Source of the DNA: a virus
Taxonomy: Duplodnaviria; Heunggongvirae; Uroviricota; Caudoviricetes
Reading direction: 5' to 3' (one strand)
Length of the DNA stretch: 22,262 bases
Virus record (IMG/VR): IMGVR_UViG_2563366960_000006
A model generated the notes under the pieces. It did no database searches, was not told the DNA's origin, and saw only the letters and a program-made list of their open reading frames with translations. A program made the translations under genes and the position numbers. Shown piece after piece: positions 4,477 to 17,696 of this stretch. Within the stretch, counting starts at the first letter, position 1. Each line of letters opens with the position of its first letter.

Positions 4477-4773
4477 TTATACCTCTGAATCAATATCAGC
4501 CTGATGGTGAGCAATGGTTTCAACTATGTACCGGATGTGTTCTGCCATGCGCTCCTGAAACTCAACATCGTCATCAAACGCACGGGTAATGGCTTTTTTG
4601 CTGGCCCCGTGGCGTTGTAAATGATCGATGCATAGCGATTCAAACAGGTGCTGGGGCAGGCCTTTTTCCATGTCGTCTGCCAGTTCTGCCTCTTTCTCTT
4701 CACGGGCGATCTGCTGGTAGTGACGCGCCCAGCTCTGAGCCTCAAGACGATCCTGAATGTAATAAGCGTTCAT
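4477..4773 (-). CDS. gam: Lambda Gam (RecBCD inhibitor), 98-aa GamS form
   Basis: Protein [60 protein letters not shown]... matches lambda Gam. Confidence 0.93.
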
Positions 4774-4848
4774 GGCTGAACTCCTGAAAATGGCTGTGAA
4801 AATATCGCCCGCGAAATGCCAGGCTGATTAGGAAAACAGGAAAGGGGG

Positions 4849-4992
4849 TTAGTGAATGCTTTTGCTTGATCTCAGTTTCAGTATTAATATCCATTTTTTA
4901 TAAGCGTCGACGGCCTCACGAAACATCTTTTCATCGCCAATAAAAGTGGCGATAGTGAATTTAGTCTGGATAGCCATAATTGTTTGATCCAT
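4849..4992 (-). CDS. kil: Kil (host killing / FtsZ inhibitor), 47 aa
   Basis: [47 protein letters not shown] from ATG at 4992 with AGGAG SD; matches lambda Kil apart from one residue (recall). The track shows a longer in-frame ORF from 5118 that I consider an upstream extension. Confidence 0.8.
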
Positions 4993-5125
4993 TTTTTGGG
5001 ACTCCTGGCTGATTAAGTATGTCGATAAGGCGTTTCCATCCGTCACGTAATTTACGGGTGATTCGTTCAAGTAAAGATTCGGAAGGGCAGCCAGCAACAG
5101 GCCACCCTGCAATGGCATATTGCAT
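4961..5125 (-). CDS. cIII: CIII (FtsH inhibitor stabilising CII), 54 aa
   Basis: Not in the ORF track (under 60 aa). Hand translation from ATG at 5125 (SD AAGGAG) gives [54 protein letters not shown], stop at 4961-4963; overlaps kil by 32 nt as in lambda. Confidence 0.85.
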   Translation of the reverse strand: MQYAIAGWPVAGCPSESLLERITRKLRDGWKRLIDILNQPGVPKNGSNNYGYPD

Positions 5126-5197
5126 GGTGTGCTCCTTATTTATACATAACGAAAAACGCCTCGAGTGAAGCGTAATTGGTATGCGGTAACGCCGCGC

Positions 5198-5566
5198 TCA
5201 GGCGGCCTTGATAGTCATATCATCTGAATCAAATATTCCTGATGTATCGATATCGGTAATTCTTATTCCTTCACTACCATCCATTGGAGGCCATCCTTCC
5301 TGACCATTTCCATCATTCCAGTCGAACTCACACACAACACCATATGCATTTAAGTCGCTTGAAATTGCTATAAGCAGAGCATGTTGCGCCAGCATGATTA
5401 ATACAGCATTTAATACAGAGCCGTGTTTATTGAGTCGGTATTCAGAGTCTGACCAGAAATTATTAATCTGGTGAAGTTTTTCCTCTGTCATTACGTCATG
5501 GTCAATTTCAATTTCTATTGATGCTTTCCAGTCGTAATCAATGATGTATTTTTTGATGTTTGACAT
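5198..5566 (-). CDS. ea10: Ea10-like early protein (122 aa)
   Basis: MSNIKKYIIDYDWKASIEIEIDHDVMTEEKLHQINNFWSDSEYRL... matches my recollection of lambda Ea10; located just distal to cIII as in lambda. Confidence 0.75.
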   Translation of the reverse strand: MSNIKKYIIDYDWKASIEIEIDHDVMTEEKLHQINNFWSDSEYRLNKHGSVLNAVLIMLAQHALLIAISSDLNAYGVVCEFDWNDGNGQEGWPPMDGSEGIRITDIDTSGIFDSDDMTIKAA

Positions 5567-5584
5567 CTATTCATATCCTCATAG

Positions 5585-5612
5585 ATAAAAAATCGCCCTC
5601 ACACTGGAGGGC
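5585..5612 (-). terminator. Intrinsic terminator on the minus strand, between the 156-aa gene and ea10
   Basis: Minus strand: GCCCTC-CAGTGT-GAGGGC (plus 5595-5612) followed by GATTTTTTAT (plus 5585-5594). Confidence 0.45.
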
Positions 5613-5716
5613 AAAGAAGATTTCCAATAATCAGAACAAGTCGGCTCCTGTTTAGTTACGAGCGACATTGCTCCGTGTATTCACTCGTTGGAATGAATAC
5701 ACAGTGCTTATTCGTA

Positions 5717-6187
5717 CTAATAAAACACCCAGTTTTCTGTTTCTTGGTTGTGTCCAAAGTTATATTCAATATCTGGTGTTGATGTATCAATATTCTTCAT
5801 CCCATCAACAAGAGTTGATACAACAGCCAAATCTTGTTTGATTCTCATTAAATGGTATTTCTTCCGGCGCAATAAACTTTCAATGGCAAGTTTCTTCGTT
5901 GGGAATGCAAAAGATCTTTCTGCATTTTTTGCTACTTTCTTAATTGCATATCTATTTCTCTTTTGTTTCCATTCCTGTAACCACTGATTTGGTGCTGGTT
6001 TAAAATTAACAATCCAATGCGCAGGAACCAACCATGCATAATGCTCTGTCTGATGAAAAGCTATATATTGAAGTGCGAATATTTTGATTCCATCTTCTTC
6101 AACTGTCGCCTGGAATCTCCAGAAAACAGGCATTCCATCATGTTCAGTTTCTGATTCAGGAAAAGGTACGCTCCATGATTTTGTCAT
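5717..6187 (-). CDS. Hypothetical protein (156 aa), moron-like cargo at the ral/sieB position
   Basis: ORF with ATG at 6187 and SD GAGGTGA; Trp-rich N-terminal half and a strongly basic central segment (KQKRNRYAIKKVAKNAERSF...LLRRKKYHLMRIKQ). No motif I recognise. Flanked by terminator-like hairpins on both sides. Confidence 0.6.
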   Translation of the reverse strand: MTKSWSVPFPESETEHDGMPVFWRFQATVEEDGIKIFALQYIAFHQTEHYAWLVPAHWIVNFKPAPNQWLQEWKQKRNRYAIKKVAKNAERSFAFPTKKLAIESLLRRKKYHLMRIKQDLAVVSTLVDGMKNIDTSTPDIEYNFGHNQETENWVFY

Positions 6188-6232
6188 ATCTCACCTCAAA
6201 TAATTCAGTACAGTGTTTATTCTGTTGTTTGT

Positions 6233-6261
6233 GCCAAAAATAAAGGCCGATTATGCGGCCT
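6233..6261 (-). terminator. Intrinsic terminator on the minus strand after the 207-aa gene
   Basis: Plus 6244-6261 AGGCCG-ATTATG-CGGCCT; on the minus strand the hairpin is followed by TTTATTTTTGG. The gene's stop codon (6251-6253) lies in the loop. Confidence 0.4.
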
Positions 6262-6874
6262 CGGAAGGAAGTCCAATCATCTTATTCAAATCTTCTACCC
6301 GTAAAGCAGGAAGTGCTGCACTTGCTTTATCTGCTTCTTTTGGTAGCAACTCTTTGCTTTCAGGCCAAACTTCAATAAGTCGCTTAACTGTTGTGACTGA
6401 GTTCAAAGCAGCCCATACATTTGATTCGATATCCTTTTTCTTGGCTTCAAGTTTTTGTTGCAATGCGCAGATTTCATCAAACCTTTTTGTTATTTCGTGT
6501 TCTGCGCTAAACATGCATTTATATTGGGTCGGAGTAGGGAGCAATATATCTTCGCCGTTGCCGTCTTTCCCATATGAAAGCCATCCAACCCTTCTGCCAG
6601 ATACAGTCAGATAAATTGATGCAGAACGAACATCGCATGAGCAAAATGAACATCCCAGTTTTTCAAGTTCTTCACTTATAGCTACTAACTTGGATGATAA
6701 CTGATCCACTTCCTCAGTTTTCTTTTTACCGCCAAACGCAATAACTCTGGCGTTAAGTGCAAGCTGGTTCTTTAACTTTGTTACTTCTTTAAGTTCAGTG
6801 AAAACCCCAGACTTAATTAAAGCGTTACGAGCGATTTCCTCTTTCATTCTCGTAGTTAAGCGGATTGATGACAT
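6251..6874 (-). CDS. Hypothetical protein (207 aa from ATG at 6874), first gene after N
   Basis: Track ORF extends to 6934, but ATG at 6874 has a good SD (GAGAGGAA) and avoids overlap with N. Predicted coiled-coil segments and a Cys cluster (GCSFCSCD). Sits where lambda carries sieB/ral. Confidence 0.6.
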   Translation of the reverse strand: MSSIRLTTRMKEEIARNALIKSGVFTELKEVTKLKNQLALNARVIAFGGKKKTEEVDQLSSKLVAISEELEKLGCSFCSCDVRSASIYLTVSGRRVGWLSYGKDGNGEDILLPTPTQYKCMFSAEHEITKRFDEICALQQKLEAKKKDIESNVWAALNSVTTVKRLIEVWPESKELLPKEADKASAALPALRVEDLNKMIGLPSEAA

Positions 6875-6885
6875 ATTAATTCCTC

Positions 6886-7185
6886 TCAAATAAGTTGTTT
6901 GCTGCCTAATTTTATTTTCTGGCGACCAACACAAGTCACACCCATTTCACTCCGTGGTTTCCGGTAGTAAATACGGTTCTGTTTACGCTCGACTTCTTCT
7001 GCCTTCTTGCAGCGAAGGCTTCCGAGTGATGCTGCTTTATCTGCTCTGACGCAACCAGAGAGCTTTAGCGCAATTTTTCGCGCCAGTCGCTGCTCTTGCA
7101 TTGCCTGTTCACGTTGAGCCTGTCTGCGTGCTCTGCGGCGATTTCTGGCGTTATCGTCAGCCAGATATGTAATGACTACTGTCAT
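6886..7185 (-). CDS. N: N-like transcription antitermination protein (99 aa from ATG at 7185)
   Basis: First gene downstream of pL/nutL; arginine-rich N-terminus (NARNRRRARRQAQREQ); C-terminus ...RIYYRKPRSEMGVTCVGRQKIKLGSKQLI resembles the lambda N C-terminus (...TWYSKPGERGITCSGRQKIKGKSIPLI). N-terminal ARM differs from lambda N. Confidence 0.8.
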   Translation of the reverse strand: MTVVITYLADDNARNRRRARRQAQREQAMQEQRLARKIALKLSGCVRADKAASLGSLRCKKAEEVERKQNRIYYRKPRSEMGVTCVGRQKIKLGSKQLI

Positions 7186-7291
7186 GTTGACCTCCGATGA
7201 TTGACTTTGGCGGTGACGCGCCGGGTGCTTATCTTCCGGTTGCCGTCGTGCAGCTGCACTTCGCGTCACCCCAAAGACAACTACTCTTTGG

Positions 7292-7333
7292 TTCCCGCAT
7301 TTCGGCGGGACAATCCCATCAATGTTAAAGAGC
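7292..7333 (-). promoter_or_regulatory. nutL (boxA + boxB) on the minus strand
   Basis: Minus strand carries boxA GCTCTTTAACA (plus 7323-7333) and boxB hairpin TCCCGC-CGAAAT-GCGGGA (plus 7292-7310); the same boxA/boxB pair recurs downstream of cro. Confidence 0.65.
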
Positions 7334-7379
7334 CTGCCAATCTGTTCCGTTTGGCTTCCAGCGTTCTGCTGATGTGTTT

Positions 7380-7442
7380 AGTATCACCGCTAGTGGTATG
7401 TGTGTCAACACCGCCAGAGATAATTTATCACCGCAGATGGTT
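7380..7442 (-). promoter_or_regulatory. pL promoter with operators OL1-OL2-OL3
   Basis: 17-mers TATCACCGCTAGTGGTA (7382-7398, OL1), CAACACCGCCAGAGATA (7406-7422, OL2), TATCACCGCAGATGGTT (7426-7442, OL3); minus-strand -35 TTGACA (7403-7408) and -10 GATACT (7380-7385) with 17-nt spacing. OL2 and OL3 match lambda; OL1 differs by one base. Confidence 0.85.
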
Positions 7443-7599
7443 ATCTGTATGTTTTTTATATGGATTTATTTTTTTGCAGGGGTGCATTGTTTGGTAGGTG
7501 AGGGATCAGAATTGCACTGTTTAGCAAGTTGTATCTATCAATTTTTCAATAAATACAATTGGTTATGTTGTTATTAGGTGTGGGGATCGAGAGGCAAAG

Positions 7600-8310
7600 A
7601 AAACCCGGCACTGAGGCCGGGTTGTTATTGTGCACAGAAAACCCCCAGCTAGGCTGGGGGTTCCGGAAAGCTTTCAGCTTTGAGCCAGTTATTAAAACCC
7701 CTTTTGATTTGTTAAAACACCTTGCGGTCTGGCAACTGCAAGTGTCAAACAAGAAATCAAAAGGGGGTCCCAATGGGGAACGAAAAGAGCTTAGCGCACA
7801 CCCGATGGAACTGTAAATATCACATAGTATTTGCGCCAAAATACCGAAGACAGGTGTTCTACAGAGAGAAGCGTAGAGCAATAGGCTGTATTTTGAGAAA
7901 GCTGTGTGAGTGGAAAAGTGTACGGATTCTGGAAGCTGAATGCTGTGCAGATCATATCCATATGCTTGTGGAGATCCCGCCCAAAATGAGCGTATCAGGC
8001 TTTATGGGATATCTGAAAGGGAAAAGCAGTCTGATGCCTTACGAGCAGTTTGGTGATTTGAAATTCAAATACAGGAACAGGGAGTTCTGGTGCAGAGGGT
8101 ATTACGTCGATACGGTGGGTAAGAACACGGCGAAGATACAGGATTACATAAAGCACCAGCTTGAAGAGGATAAAATGGGAGAGCAGTTATCGATTCCCTA
8201 TCCGGGCAGCCCGTTTACGGGCCGTAAGTAACGAAGTTGGATGCAAATGTCAGATCGTGTGCGCCTGTTAGGGCGCGGCTGGTAAGAGAGCCTTATAGGC
8301 GCATTTGAAA
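7600..8310 (+). mobile_element. IS200-like insertion sequence (IS200/IS605 family); boundaries approximate
   Basis: Contains tnpA (7773-8231). Upstream are a terminator-like hairpin (7602-7623, then T-rich), a 10-bp stem-loop (7640-7662), and a long-range pairing between 7698-7710 and 7754-7766 that would sequester the tnpA SD (AAGGGGG), all as described for the IS200 left end. Exact termini not determined. Confidence 0.75.
7773..8231 (+). CDS. tnpA: IS200 transposase TnpA (Y1/HUH family, 152 aa)
   Basis: MGNEKSLAHTRWNCKYHIVFAPKYRRQVFYREKRRAIGCILRKLCEWKSVRILEAECCADHIHMLVEIPPKMSVSGFMGYLKGKSSL... matches IS200 TnpA (recall). ATG at 7773; the track ORF begins 51 nt earlier. Confidence 0.92.
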   Translation: MGNEKSLAHTRWNCKYHIVFAPKYRRQVFYREKRRAIGCILRKLCEWKSVRILEAECCADHIHMLVEIPPKMSVSGFMGYLKGKSSLMPYEQFGDLKFKYRNREFWCRGYYVDTVGKNTAKIQDYIKHQLEEDKMGEQLSIPYPGSPFTGRK

Positions 8311-8335: not shown

Positions 8336-8659
8336 TTATTTATGGAAAAACACTTCAAGTATTTTTGGGATTGCTGGTATGAGTTGTGAGGATACGACCG
8401 CACCTACAACCCATAGAATTATCGAAGTTTTCGCGTCGCTTACGTCTGATTTGGTTGCATAATTCGAGCGCATGACAGCCAGGTCGGTTTTCATTTGCTG
8501 AACATCTTTTTCGAGTTCTTTCACTCTTTGAAGCACATCATCACCTCCGCCATTGCCGCCACCATGCCGTGAGTATGCATCATCAGTGGGATAGTGTCCA
8601 ATTGGGCGAGATATGTTTTGATTTGGACGAAGTTGAGTAACCTTGTTATCTAAACTCAT
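8336..8659 (-). CDS. Small tail-anchored membrane protein (107 aa), second gene of a cassette replacing rexAB
   Basis: ATG at 8659. Gly-rich N-terminal region (GGGNGGGDD), predicted coiled coil (VLQRVKELEKDVQQMKTDLAVMRSNYATKSDVSDAK), C-terminal hydrophobic helix (SIILWVVGAVVSSQLIPAIPKILEVFF). Architecture resembles XhlA-type or holin-like small membrane proteins (by recall, not searched). Start overlaps the upstream gene by 14 nt. Confidence 0.65.
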   Translation of the reverse strand: MSLDNKVTQLRPNQNISRPIGHYPTDDAYSRHGGGNGGGDDVLQRVKELEKDVQQMKTDLAVMRSNYATKSDVSDAKTSIILWVVGAVVSSQLIPAIPKILEVFFHK

Positions 8660-9083
8660 CGCGAACTGATCCTGTTATCTTCACGTCAAAAAACGAACTT
8701 TTTACATCAATTACTTCGCCTTTCTCAGGATTAACCAGTGATGCTCTAACTTCGAATATCCCAGGCTTGATAATTTTCACCCTTGGGAAGTTAATTCTCA
8801 TAGAAGTTGATACGATGGTTTCTCCATCGTTGGCTTCTGCTACCGTAAAAAACTTATGGTTGGAGTACAGTTTTGTGTCAATTGGTATCGGTATTTCTTG
8901 AGCATTGAAAACCTCAATGCCTATGGAATATTTTTTTGTAGCCTTAAGGCCGATAAAAAAAGCGCCAAATGACAGATCCACTTCATGGGAGTCTTTATCC
9001 ATTTCATAGATAAGAACTGGAGTTACGGGGTTGCCTTCATCCATCGCAATCGGAATGATATAAGAAATACGTTCTTTAATCAT
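8646..9083 (-). CDS. Hypothetical soluble protein (145 aa), first gene of a cassette replacing rexAB
   Basis: ATG at 9083 lies 7 nt after the cI stop codon (9091-9093), same strand, no intervening terminator, so it should be co-transcribed with cI. No recognisable motif; low-GC composition. Confidence 0.65.
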   Translation of the reverse strand: MIKERISYIIPIAMDEGNPVTPVLIYEMDKDSHEVDLSFGAFFIGLKATKKYSIGIEVFNAQEIPIPIDTKLYSNHKFFTVAEANDGETIVSTSMRINFPRVKIIKPGIFEVRASLVNPEKGEVIDVKSSFFDVKITGSVRDEFR

Positions 9084-9090
9084 TTACGTG

Positions 9091-9807
<717 letters not shown>

Positions 9808-16187: not shown

Positions 16188-17270
16188 TTAGAACTGATAA
16201 ACCAGACCTACAGCGACGATGTCGTCGGTATCAATACCAGCTGTTTTGGTAAACTTACTATCGTCAATTAAGTTGATTTTGTAATCAACAAAAGTGGACA
16301 TGTTTTTATTAAAGTAGTAAGTAGCACCGACATCGACATACTTGACTAAGTCTCGGTCACCATGAACACCAAGGTCTTTACCTTTTGACTGAAGGTAAGC
16401 AACAGATGGACGCAGACCGAAGTCAAACTGATATTGTGCTACTGCTTCAAAGTTTTGTGCTTTGTTTGCAATATGGTTATTACCAAAAACGGTCATATTC
16501 TGAGTTTCAGAATATGTGGTAGCCAGATAGATATTGTTCGCATCATATTTCAGGCCTGCAGCCCATACTTCCGCATTTTTGCCGGAGGCATTGAATTTGC
16601 TCTTACCATAGGCGACCTGACCGTCAGTGCGATCTGATTTAGCATAGGTTGCACCCACGCCGAATCCTTCATACTCATAAGTAGTGGAGAAACCGAAACC
16701 ATCACCATTGGCTTCAGTTACGTCAGTGCGGTCATTTTTACCCTGATACTGAGCAGCAAAGTTCAGGCCATCGACCAGACCAAAGAAGTCGTTGTTACGA
16801 TAAGTTGCAACACCAGTAGTGCGACCAGTCATGAACACATCTGTTTGGGTCCAGGTATCACCACCGAATTCTGGCAGAACGTCAGTCCACGCACCGATGT
16901 CGTATGCTACACCGTAGTTACGGCCGTAATCGATTGAGCCGTAATCACCAAATTTCAGGCCTGCAAATGCAAGACGGGTTTTGTCTTTGGAAGAACCTTG
17001 AGATTCAGCACGGTTGCCTTTGAATTCATATTCCCACTGACCGAAACCAGTCAGTTGATCGTTGATTTGGGTTTCACCTTTGAAGCCAAGACGGGCATAA
17101 GTAGTATCACCATCATCTGCATCATTAGAGGAGAAGTAGTGCTTGGCATTAACTTTCCCGTATAGATCCAGCTTGTTACTGTCTTTATTATAAATTTCAG
17201 CTGCCTGAGCAGACATCGCCATCAGTACTGATGCAGCTACAGCAGAAATTGCCACTGTTAATTTTTTCAT
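16188..17270 (-). CDS. nmpC: Phage-borne outer-membrane general porin (OmpC/OmpF/PhoE family; NmpC/Lc-type), 360 aa
   Basis: Signal peptide [23 protein letters not shown] then [17 protein letters not shown]..., porin PEFGGD motif, C-terminal ...VGLVYQF. ATG at 17270 (track ORF extends 60 nt upstream). Located between Q and the lysis cassette, as nmpC is in DLP12. Confidence 0.9.
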
Positions 17271-17696
17271 TGTACGCCCTTTTTTTGAACTATTATTAAA
17301 AAATGATGTCACTGCGCGATAAATATTCATCTAATCAATGTGATTATTTCAAGATGTAAGTTTTAGTTTCTCATTTAATTTGTGAAGTAGATCTCTATTT
17401 TTATCTGAACCTTTTCTATCTAATCCTATTCATGGCTCTTGTCTGAACAAAAATAAATCTATTAGCTAATTTATATTAATGGCACTTATTTATAAGTGCT
17501 CTATAATTCTTTAGCTTAATTTAAACAAACTAAAAATAACATCGGAAATTATTAACTGGTTATTTGTTGAAGTTTTCTTATGCATTTGTGGTGGTGTTTT
17601 GAACACTCGGTGGCATTCTCACAAATATCATTTAGTAGTTTACGTACGTAAAAAATTGGTTATGCTGTTAAGAGTGGTTACTTCGTCACACAGCTT

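Follow-up and report, generated by a model that had tools for sequence, protein, structure and literature searches.

Morons are defined as genes that carry their own promoter and terminator and are expressed from a repressed prophage (PMC3594210). Those described in lambdoid phages (Juhala et al. 2000; HK97 gene 15) are extra DNA located between genes that are adjacent in relatives and have a deviant GC content, and in the first respect, and possibly in the second, they resemble the reading frame analysed here, which encodes a protein of 156 amino acids and is called orf156 below. Unlike these morons, orf156 is without a promoter or a terminator of its own and is co-oriented with its neighbours inside an N-antiterminated early operon, so that expression from the repressed prophage is not expected. 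The closest described systems are found in phages 933W, HK97 and H-19B. The 933W gene L0079 (ST933Wp19, NP_049479), the HK97 gene for gp45 (NP_037731) and an unannotated ORF of H-19B are the same gene as orf156, with the same length and with the same downstream boundary sequence and terminator. In 933W and HK97 this gene is positioned directly after N, across an N remnant, whereas in the locus described here an Nmad5-family gene, a hairpin and a second boundary left edge intervene. In lambda the same slot, from N to the boundary sequence before ea10, is taken by the ral/sieB/orf28 region, the content of which, like orf156, is dispensable and variable; lambda Ral (66 aa) and SieB (encoded on the opposite strand) are unrelated to the orf156 protein. 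Sf6 gp34, encoded in the same slot, was also compared with the orf156 protein and was rejected as a relative (hhalign probability 0.1%). Compared with the tL2 cluster of lambda (tL2A) and with bsq4 of HK620 and Sf6, the boundary sequence of our locus has a duplicated left edge, and orf156 is placed between both copies.

The window, i.e. the whole stretch of DNA that was analysed (22,262 nucleotides, IMG/VR record IMGVR_UViG_2563366960_000006), contains a lambdoid prophage with the order int, exo, bet, gam, kil/cIII, ea10, orf156, Nmad5 gene and N. All features of the locus are located on the minus strand unless stated otherwise. A pL-like promoter, TTGACA-17-GATACT (7380–7408), is the sole minus-strand sigma-70-like site in the region 4700–7800, and its hexamers TTGACA and GATACT, at 7408–7380, are those of lambda pL. 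The antiterminator gene N (PHROG 271, E 1.9e-35) was found at 6886–7185, within a longer frame that extends to 7269; alignment with the N proteins of HK620, lambda and Sf6 indicates that the true start is probably the ATG at 7185 (99 aa) and not the GTG at 7269. Downstream of N are the Nmad5-family gene (6251–6874; 207 aa from the ATG at 6874; Pfam PF18757, E 1.7e-68), which is a second cassette between N and orf156, a terminator-like hairpin with a T-run at the end of the Nmad5 gene (6233–6262), orf156 itself (5717–6187), and the boundary sequence homologous to Sf6 bsq4 (5567–5707). The next gene downstream of orf156 is ea10 (DUF2528; 5198–5566; Pfam PF10800, E 1.8e-47). The arrangement reads N-[L1]-Nmad5-[hairpin-L2]-[L1']-orf156-[L2'-bsq4-tL2A]-ea10, where L1 and L2 are short repeated linkers; orf156 occupies the hypervariable stretch that runs from N to the conserved boundary sequence/tL2A, ahead of ea10 and cIII. 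The combination of Nmad5 and orf156 is also annotated in E. coli 95NR1 (RefSeq) and recurs in some IMG/VR prophages (L018, L053). The N gene of the window was seen to be a mosaic in its own right: the part MTVVITYLADDNARNRRRARR...CKKAEE, with the arginine-rich motif, is of the HK620 type and the C-terminus (...RKPRSEMGVTCVGRQKIKLGSKQLI) is of the lambda/Sf6 type. We also observed the lambda cIII thermoregulator RNA element at 5080–5138 on the minus strand (Rfam RF01804, 88.5 bits).

An earlier note on this DNA had described orf156 as a 156-aa frame with a good Shine-Dalgarno sequence. The frame is present in the ORF listing with an ATG start, and the sequence GAGGTGA was found 5–11 nt upstream of this ATG. 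The same note had recognised nothing similar to the protein, and in this it was mistaken. The protein belongs to PHROG 1636 (E 5.4e-112, residues 1–156 on profile positions 1–156), and the gene shows approximately 99% DNA identity to 933W L0079 and to the gene for HK97 gp45; the cassette as a whole is 98–99% identical in DNA to those of 933W, HK97 and H-19B. We identified 33 homologues in Enterobacterales with 57–99% identity, and 42 alignment columns are invariant across 55–99% identity; the close homologues (57–99% identity, 156–163 aa) occur in Escherichia, Cronobacter, Pectobacterium, Brenneria, Rosenbergiella and Symbiopectobacterium. All full-length homologues are 156–169 aa long, so orf156 is not a fragment of a larger gene. 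Since synonymous sites are saturated while dN is only 0.22–0.30, the gene is considered real and constrained. In Cronobacter the homologue is again positioned between N and cIII, and in Pectobacterium it lies at the end of the left operon, adjoining xis/int. The gene was detected in 598 of 5426 complete E. coli genomes (about 11%), annotated as hypothetical every time, and the Shiga-toxin phages that carry it include 933W, H-19B, phi24B, BP-4795 and Min27. Its GC content is 36%, compared with 51–52% for N, bet and exo; the genes on either side are about as AT-rich, with 38% for ea10 and 40% for Nmad5. A literature search by L0079, by accession numbers and by HK97 gp45 found no publication that names or tests the gene. 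From these comparisons we conclude that orf156 is a complete, real and conserved gene that is already catalogued as 'hypothetical protein' in 933W and HK97.

The description of the product as a Trp-rich protein with a highly basic centre held up. There are 7 Trp among 156 residues (4.5%), and residues 73–116 contain 15 K+R versus 2 D+E; the pI is 9.0 for the whole protein and 11.5 for this segment. The basic residues R79, K84, K87, R91, R107, K109 and R115 are invariant in the family. With a mass of 18.6 kDa, the protein is soluble, and its family is restricted to phages. AlphaFold prediction with 22 close homologues gave a pLDDT of 65, and a rerun with 41 diverse members gave a usable model (pLDDT 94.6, pTM 0.80). 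In this model a long beta-sheet of three strands is accompanied by short helices and by a basic helix of 33 residues, and the C-terminal tail is acidic/aromatic and conserved; there are strands at residues 19–30, 33–46, 50–55 and 83–86 and helices at 56–62, 66–74 and 98–130. No structural neighbour was found in the PDB, a sequence profile search of the PDB returned noise only, and Pfam and NCBIfam scans assigned the protein to no family; the Pfam scan of the 41 family members likewise gave noise only. A three-strand-plus-helix DNA-binding domain of the AP2 or integrase-N kind was tried as a candidate and was rejected by hhalign. Among the PADLOC defence models the only match was weak and partial (Cas1_II, E 0.0097, 13 bits).

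Distant relatives of the protein were detected by sequence as well as by structure. In the extended family alignment PHROG 1636 is matched by all 41 members and PHROG 13631 by 35 of the 41. The profile search gave 87 cluster representatives at E <= 1e-3, mostly of 130–160 aa and with 20–28% identity, and the structure search of BFVD gave 13 matches at E <= 1e-3, all of them uncharacterised proteins from diverse phages; fold relatives occur in phages of Vibrio, Rhizobium/Sinorhizobium, Delftia, Achromobacter, Tenacibaculum and Cellulophaga. The genes of the distant relatives, which belong to unrelated phages, are usually located amid early or accessory genes. One follows a gene for a Sak4-like ATPase, another a gene of the GerE-type HTH class (L012), a third opens a leftward operon in the BASEL phage Bas81 and a fourth comes second in an early operon of a Vibrio phage. 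At several loci the family gene is thus the first or second of an early operon, right after a small transcription regulator (N, or the GerE-type HTH protein in L012). More moron-like in appearance is L004, a distant relative whose gene stands alone on the strand opposite to its neighbours. The locus search with the alignment of close homologues returned only near-identical E. coli prophages, and tblastn of one distant family member against phages gave a single uninformative match. We think it unlikely that the family, made up of PHROGs 1636, 13631 and 25384, represents a class of early phage proteins that is new in structure.

The earlier note had placed orf156 between two intrinsic-terminator-like hairpins on the minus strand and had reported a 9-bp perfect inverted repeat at 5675–5702. 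The inverted repeat is present (GTGTATTCA / TGAATACAC at 5702–5694 and 5683–5675), and so are both hairpins, but they are not the gene's own: they are backbone elements that occur in lambda and Sf6 without orf156. A terminator scan of 4700–7800 (3.1 kb) detected 8 terminator-like sites, compared with 2.8 +/- 1.4 in shuffled sequences. The upstream hairpin has a stem (6262–6243) of 7 bp with 5 GC pairs and a 6-nt loop and is followed by TATTTTTGGC. Its RNA fold (-11 kcal/mol, z -1.6) is, by energy alone, not distinguishable from shuffles, so that its activity as a terminator is only putative. A homologous hairpin with its T-run stands behind ral in lambda and behind gene 34 in Sf6, and in IMG/VR prophages the element follows several different genes. 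The downstream hairpin has an 8-bp stem (5614–5593) followed by TTTTTTAT and folds at -12.9 kcal/mol (z -4.0). It is part of a putative intrinsic terminator (5583–5614) just upstream of ea10, homologous to lambda tL2A, which was matched by the scan in the window, 933W and lambda. Its homologue is named tL2A in the HK620 record, 'putative terminator' in the HK97 record and 'tL2A, homology to phage lambda' in the Sf6 record; in the latter record a 113-bp block with the inverted repeat is called 'bsq4; boundary sequence', and it is from the Sf6 and HK620 records that we take the term. The terminator, the inverted repeat and most of the 5567–5707 spacer are 95–100% identical to elements at the syntenic position in lambda, HK620 and Sf6, and the 136-bp spacer was found in 327 phage records, lambda included, mostly at >=95% identity. 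In 933W, the scan found no terminator-like site between N and orf156, and HK97 likewise carries orf156 without one. Bracketing by hairpins is not a property of the cassette, because both hairpins are shared elements of the lambda backbone.

The boundary sequence contains the inverted-repeat hairpin, a middle hairpin and tL2A. We observed that, as RNA, the inverted repeat can form a 12–14-bp stem with G-U pairs on the pL-transcribed strand only (-21.7 kcal/mol, z -8.1) and that the boundary sequence at 5583–5716 folds as a 134-nt RNA into three hairpins (z -4.85). The folded boundary RNA hints at an RNA-level role (processing, stabilisation or sRNA) for a block that is usually deemed a recombination linker. 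An Rfam scan of the spacer detected no known sRNA at gathering score, and the anti-sRNAs of EHEC, considered as candidates for a spacer RNA, map to the pR' region instead.

The limits of the insertion were defined by comparison with ral-bearing lambdoid phages, as the earlier note had proposed. In lambda the ral stop is followed by '...ggcctttatttttggcataaataacagaataaacactgcactg|tgtattcattccaacgagtgaatacac...gccctccagtgtgagggcgatttttt' and then by ea10, i.e. the T-run of the upstream hairpin, the spacer, the inverted repeat and the downstream terminator are contiguous, with no gene in between. The window therefore carries approximately 500 extra bases (5708–6205) relative to lambda. Sf6, too, joins the flanks of orf156 directly. 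Among the 331 phage records with this backbone, the empty junction was found in 208, and the orf156 cassette was found in 82 records. At the other end, 933W and the window are 98.8% identical from inside ea10 to 16 nt before the ATG of orf156 and then diverge; in 933W and HK97 the gene upstream of orf156 is N. The description of orf156 as an independently acquired moron was thus supported insofar as the gene is a discrete, present/absent cassette with sharp boundaries, and it was not supported with regard to a promoter and a terminator of its own.

Two short linkers mark these boundaries. The 16 nt common to all copies of the cassette, TTATTTGAGGTGAGAT, consist of the '..L-I-stop' of a lambda-type N and the Shine-Dalgarno sequence. 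The L1 pattern occurs exactly twice in the window, at 6881–6893, where it contains the true N stop before Nmad5, and at 6191–6203 (TTATTTGAGGTGA), where what is left of a lambda-type N 3' end (..L-I-stop) provides the Shine-Dalgarno sequence of orf156. The L2 pattern, GAATAARCACTGT, is the left edge of the boundary sequence and also occurs exactly twice, with one copy at 6210–6222 (GAATAAACACTGT), split from the remainder of the boundary sequence by the orf156 cassette, and another at 5701–5713 (GAATAAGCACTGT), at the right end of the cassette and fused to the boundary sequence. For both patterns 0 occurrences are expected by chance. In lambda, Sf6 and HK620 the L2 pattern runs directly into the inverted repeat, and the HK620 mosaic junction is located at the same 12-mer as the second L2 copy. 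The left bound of the cassette is the N 3' end plus the Shine-Dalgarno sequence (TTATTTGAGG) and the right bound the left edge of the boundary sequence (GAATAARCACTG). If recombination at such linkers had brought Nmad5 and orf156 together, both linkers would be expected in duplicate, as they are in the window, and we infer that two cassettes were joined at short repeated linkers in the way that the 'boundary sequence' model of lambdoid mosaicism proposes. As an illustration of how lambdoid phages shuffle cassettes at short conserved linkers, here the N 3' end and the left edge of bsq4, the locus would be a clean textbook case.

Other copies of the locus have the same left junction. Among 78 loci (77 related IMG/VR loci and the window itself), about 64 have orf156 8 nt after an N-type 3' end (...GSKPLI and stop), either intact or as a remnant, and 12 IMG/VR loci match the context of the window, where orf156 is preceded by the left edge of the boundary sequence instead. 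In 933W (L001, 4789–4846) and HK97 (L008, 2986–3043) the 55–58 nt from the N stop to orf156 are a non-coding remnant, VTCVGRQKMKLGSKPLI followed by a stop, which corresponds to the final ~17 codons of an N gene of the lambda type and lies behind an N allele of another kind. The remnant is a fossil of N-allele replacement. The Nmad5 gene was observed to be a cassette as well: its start codon is 11 nt after the N stop, and it is flanked by the repeated linker TTATTTGAG(A/G)(G/T)GA (6881–6893 and 6191–6203). Given these flanking copies, a comparison with 933W and HK97 makes Nmad5, not orf156, look like the piece inserted between N and orf156.

A layout of promoter, gene and terminator had been ascribed to orf156. 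Consensus scanning detected no sigma-70-like minus-strand site between pL and the orf156 ATG, and the terminators belong to the backbone, having been named tL2A and bsq4 by the curators of the HK620 and Sf6 records. The best match to a promoter under relaxed settings, TTGGCA-19-TGTACT (6237–6207; 9/12, 19-nt spacer), is located in backbone DNA; the gene-specific DNA upstream of orf156 is 16 nt only. Transcription of orf156 would start at pL (~7380–7408), and the polymerase would reach the gene only by reading through the terminator-like hairpin after Nmad5. Because the pL transcript must pass this hairpin, orf156 is expected to be a delayed-early, N-dependent gene, which would be silent while the prophage is repressed and would be expressed upon infection or induction. 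In a study of expression in phi24B lysogens orf156 was not among the listed products; the 2D gels of that study did not cover pI 9. We regard the cassette and operon architecture, taken alone and as deduced from these comparisons, as highly probable. The whole statement, in which orf156 is a promoter-less cassette of the pL operon, delayed-early under N, with a product that may bind nucleic acid or an acidic partner, is favoured with moderate confidence.

This statement was weighed against other explanations of the gene. One is that orf156 is not functional and is either a frame open by chance or a remnant decaying within an AT-rich spacer, as might be supposed of a frame without a Pfam or NCBIfam family and annotated solely as hypothetical. 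Such a frame would not be expected to be conserved at full length in Escherichia, Cronobacter, Pectobacterium, Brenneria and Rosenbergiella with its 42 invariant columns, to show a dN of 0.22–0.30 against saturated synonymous sites, to have 87 distant relatives (E <= 1e-3) in a set of representatives clustered at 50% identity, to give a model with a pLDDT of 94.6, or to have a good Shine-Dalgarno sequence; we assign the non-functional explanation almost no probability and, as far as conservation data can tell, consider it effectively refuted. Another explanation is that orf156 is a true moron, an autonomous unit of promoter, gene and terminator that is on in the repressed prophage and gives the lysogen a phenotype such as superinfection exclusion or defence. 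The scan did not find an acceptable promoter for such a unit. The weak TTGGCA-19-TGTACT match upstream of orf156 could be taken for one, but it is part of backbone DNA that the 933W and HK97 loci lack, orf156 being abutted there by an N 3' end or its remnant, and both terminators are elements of the backbone. The present/absent polymorphism and the low GC content of orf156 agree with a moron, as do the sieB-type exclusion genes held by the same slot in lambda and HK620 and the distant relative that is a lone gene on the opposite strand (L004). On the other hand, orf156 is embedded in the pL operon in the same orientation, its product has structural relatives in many unrelated phages and is without the TM or signal features typical of Sie proteins, and no meaningful match to a PADLOC defence model was obtained. 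A true moron is therefore improbable in our estimate, and we do not think that orf156 is a lysogenic-conversion factor.

The main rival is a role in counter-defence (anti-restriction or anti-abortive infection), in which orf156 would act like Ral as an early shield for incoming or replicating phage DNA. The gene is located in the variable interval between N and cIII that holds ral in lambda, Sf6 and PhiR57_1, its neighbour is the Nmad5 'nucleotide-modification-associated' gene, its expression is predicted to be early, and its homologues occur in diverse phages, some beside DNA methylases. Moreover, accessory regions that contain ral are a documented source of counter-defence genes and of triggers of defence systems (bioRxiv 10.1101/2023.04.06.535777). 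Against this, no similarity to known anti-defence proteins was found in sequence or fold, the orf156 protein is basic and therefore not a DNA mimic, and a search of the text supplements to that accessory-gene screen for orf156 peptides gave no match. We consider a counter-defence role unlikely, although it comes before the other alternatives. The ral-region hit of that screen, 'orf184' (the gop-beta-cII trigger of Silas et al.), starts MEALVVERSEDGYW and is a different protein from that of orf156.

Returning to the reading of orf156 as an early-operon cassette, our guess at what the product does is a tentative one, made with low confidence: early in the lytic cycle it may bind nucleic acid or else an acidic partner from host or phage. 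We suggest this because of the invariant basic residues, the cytoplasmic composition, the position in the early operon and the fold relatives in many unrelated phages. The tie to nucleic acid consists only of charge and conservation, and the idea of binding is plausible. If orf156 is driven from pL, it is probably N-dependent, and lytic development and induction are then where its effects should be looked for, not the phenotypes of lysogens. Both orf156 and the elements that flank it are already catalogued; current understanding is left unchanged, and the findings on the gene therefore matter only modestly.

Several other features of the prophage were observed outside the interval between N and ea10. 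An IS200/IS605-type element is located at 7546–8300, just upstream of pL, between the operator/promoter region and small cI-distal genes. It contains a Y1 transposase gene (7722–8231, plus strand; PF01797), a flanking STnc490 Hfq-binding RNA (Rfam RF01405, 7640–7763, 146 bits) and a strong bidirectional hairpin at 7602–7623. Two small ORFs of 107 and 145 aa (8336–9083, minus strand) lie directly downstream of the gene for a cI-like repressor (9091–9804), in the position of lambda rexA/rexB; a Pfam scan of both gave no match, and they may be immunity-region genes expressed by the prophage. A gene for a 380-aa Gram-negative porin (PF00267, E 2e-151) was found at 16188–17330 on the minus strand, downstream of the replication/nin region and on the opposite strand. 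This gene is of the lysogenic-conversion type and is a better candidate for a genuine moron than orf156.
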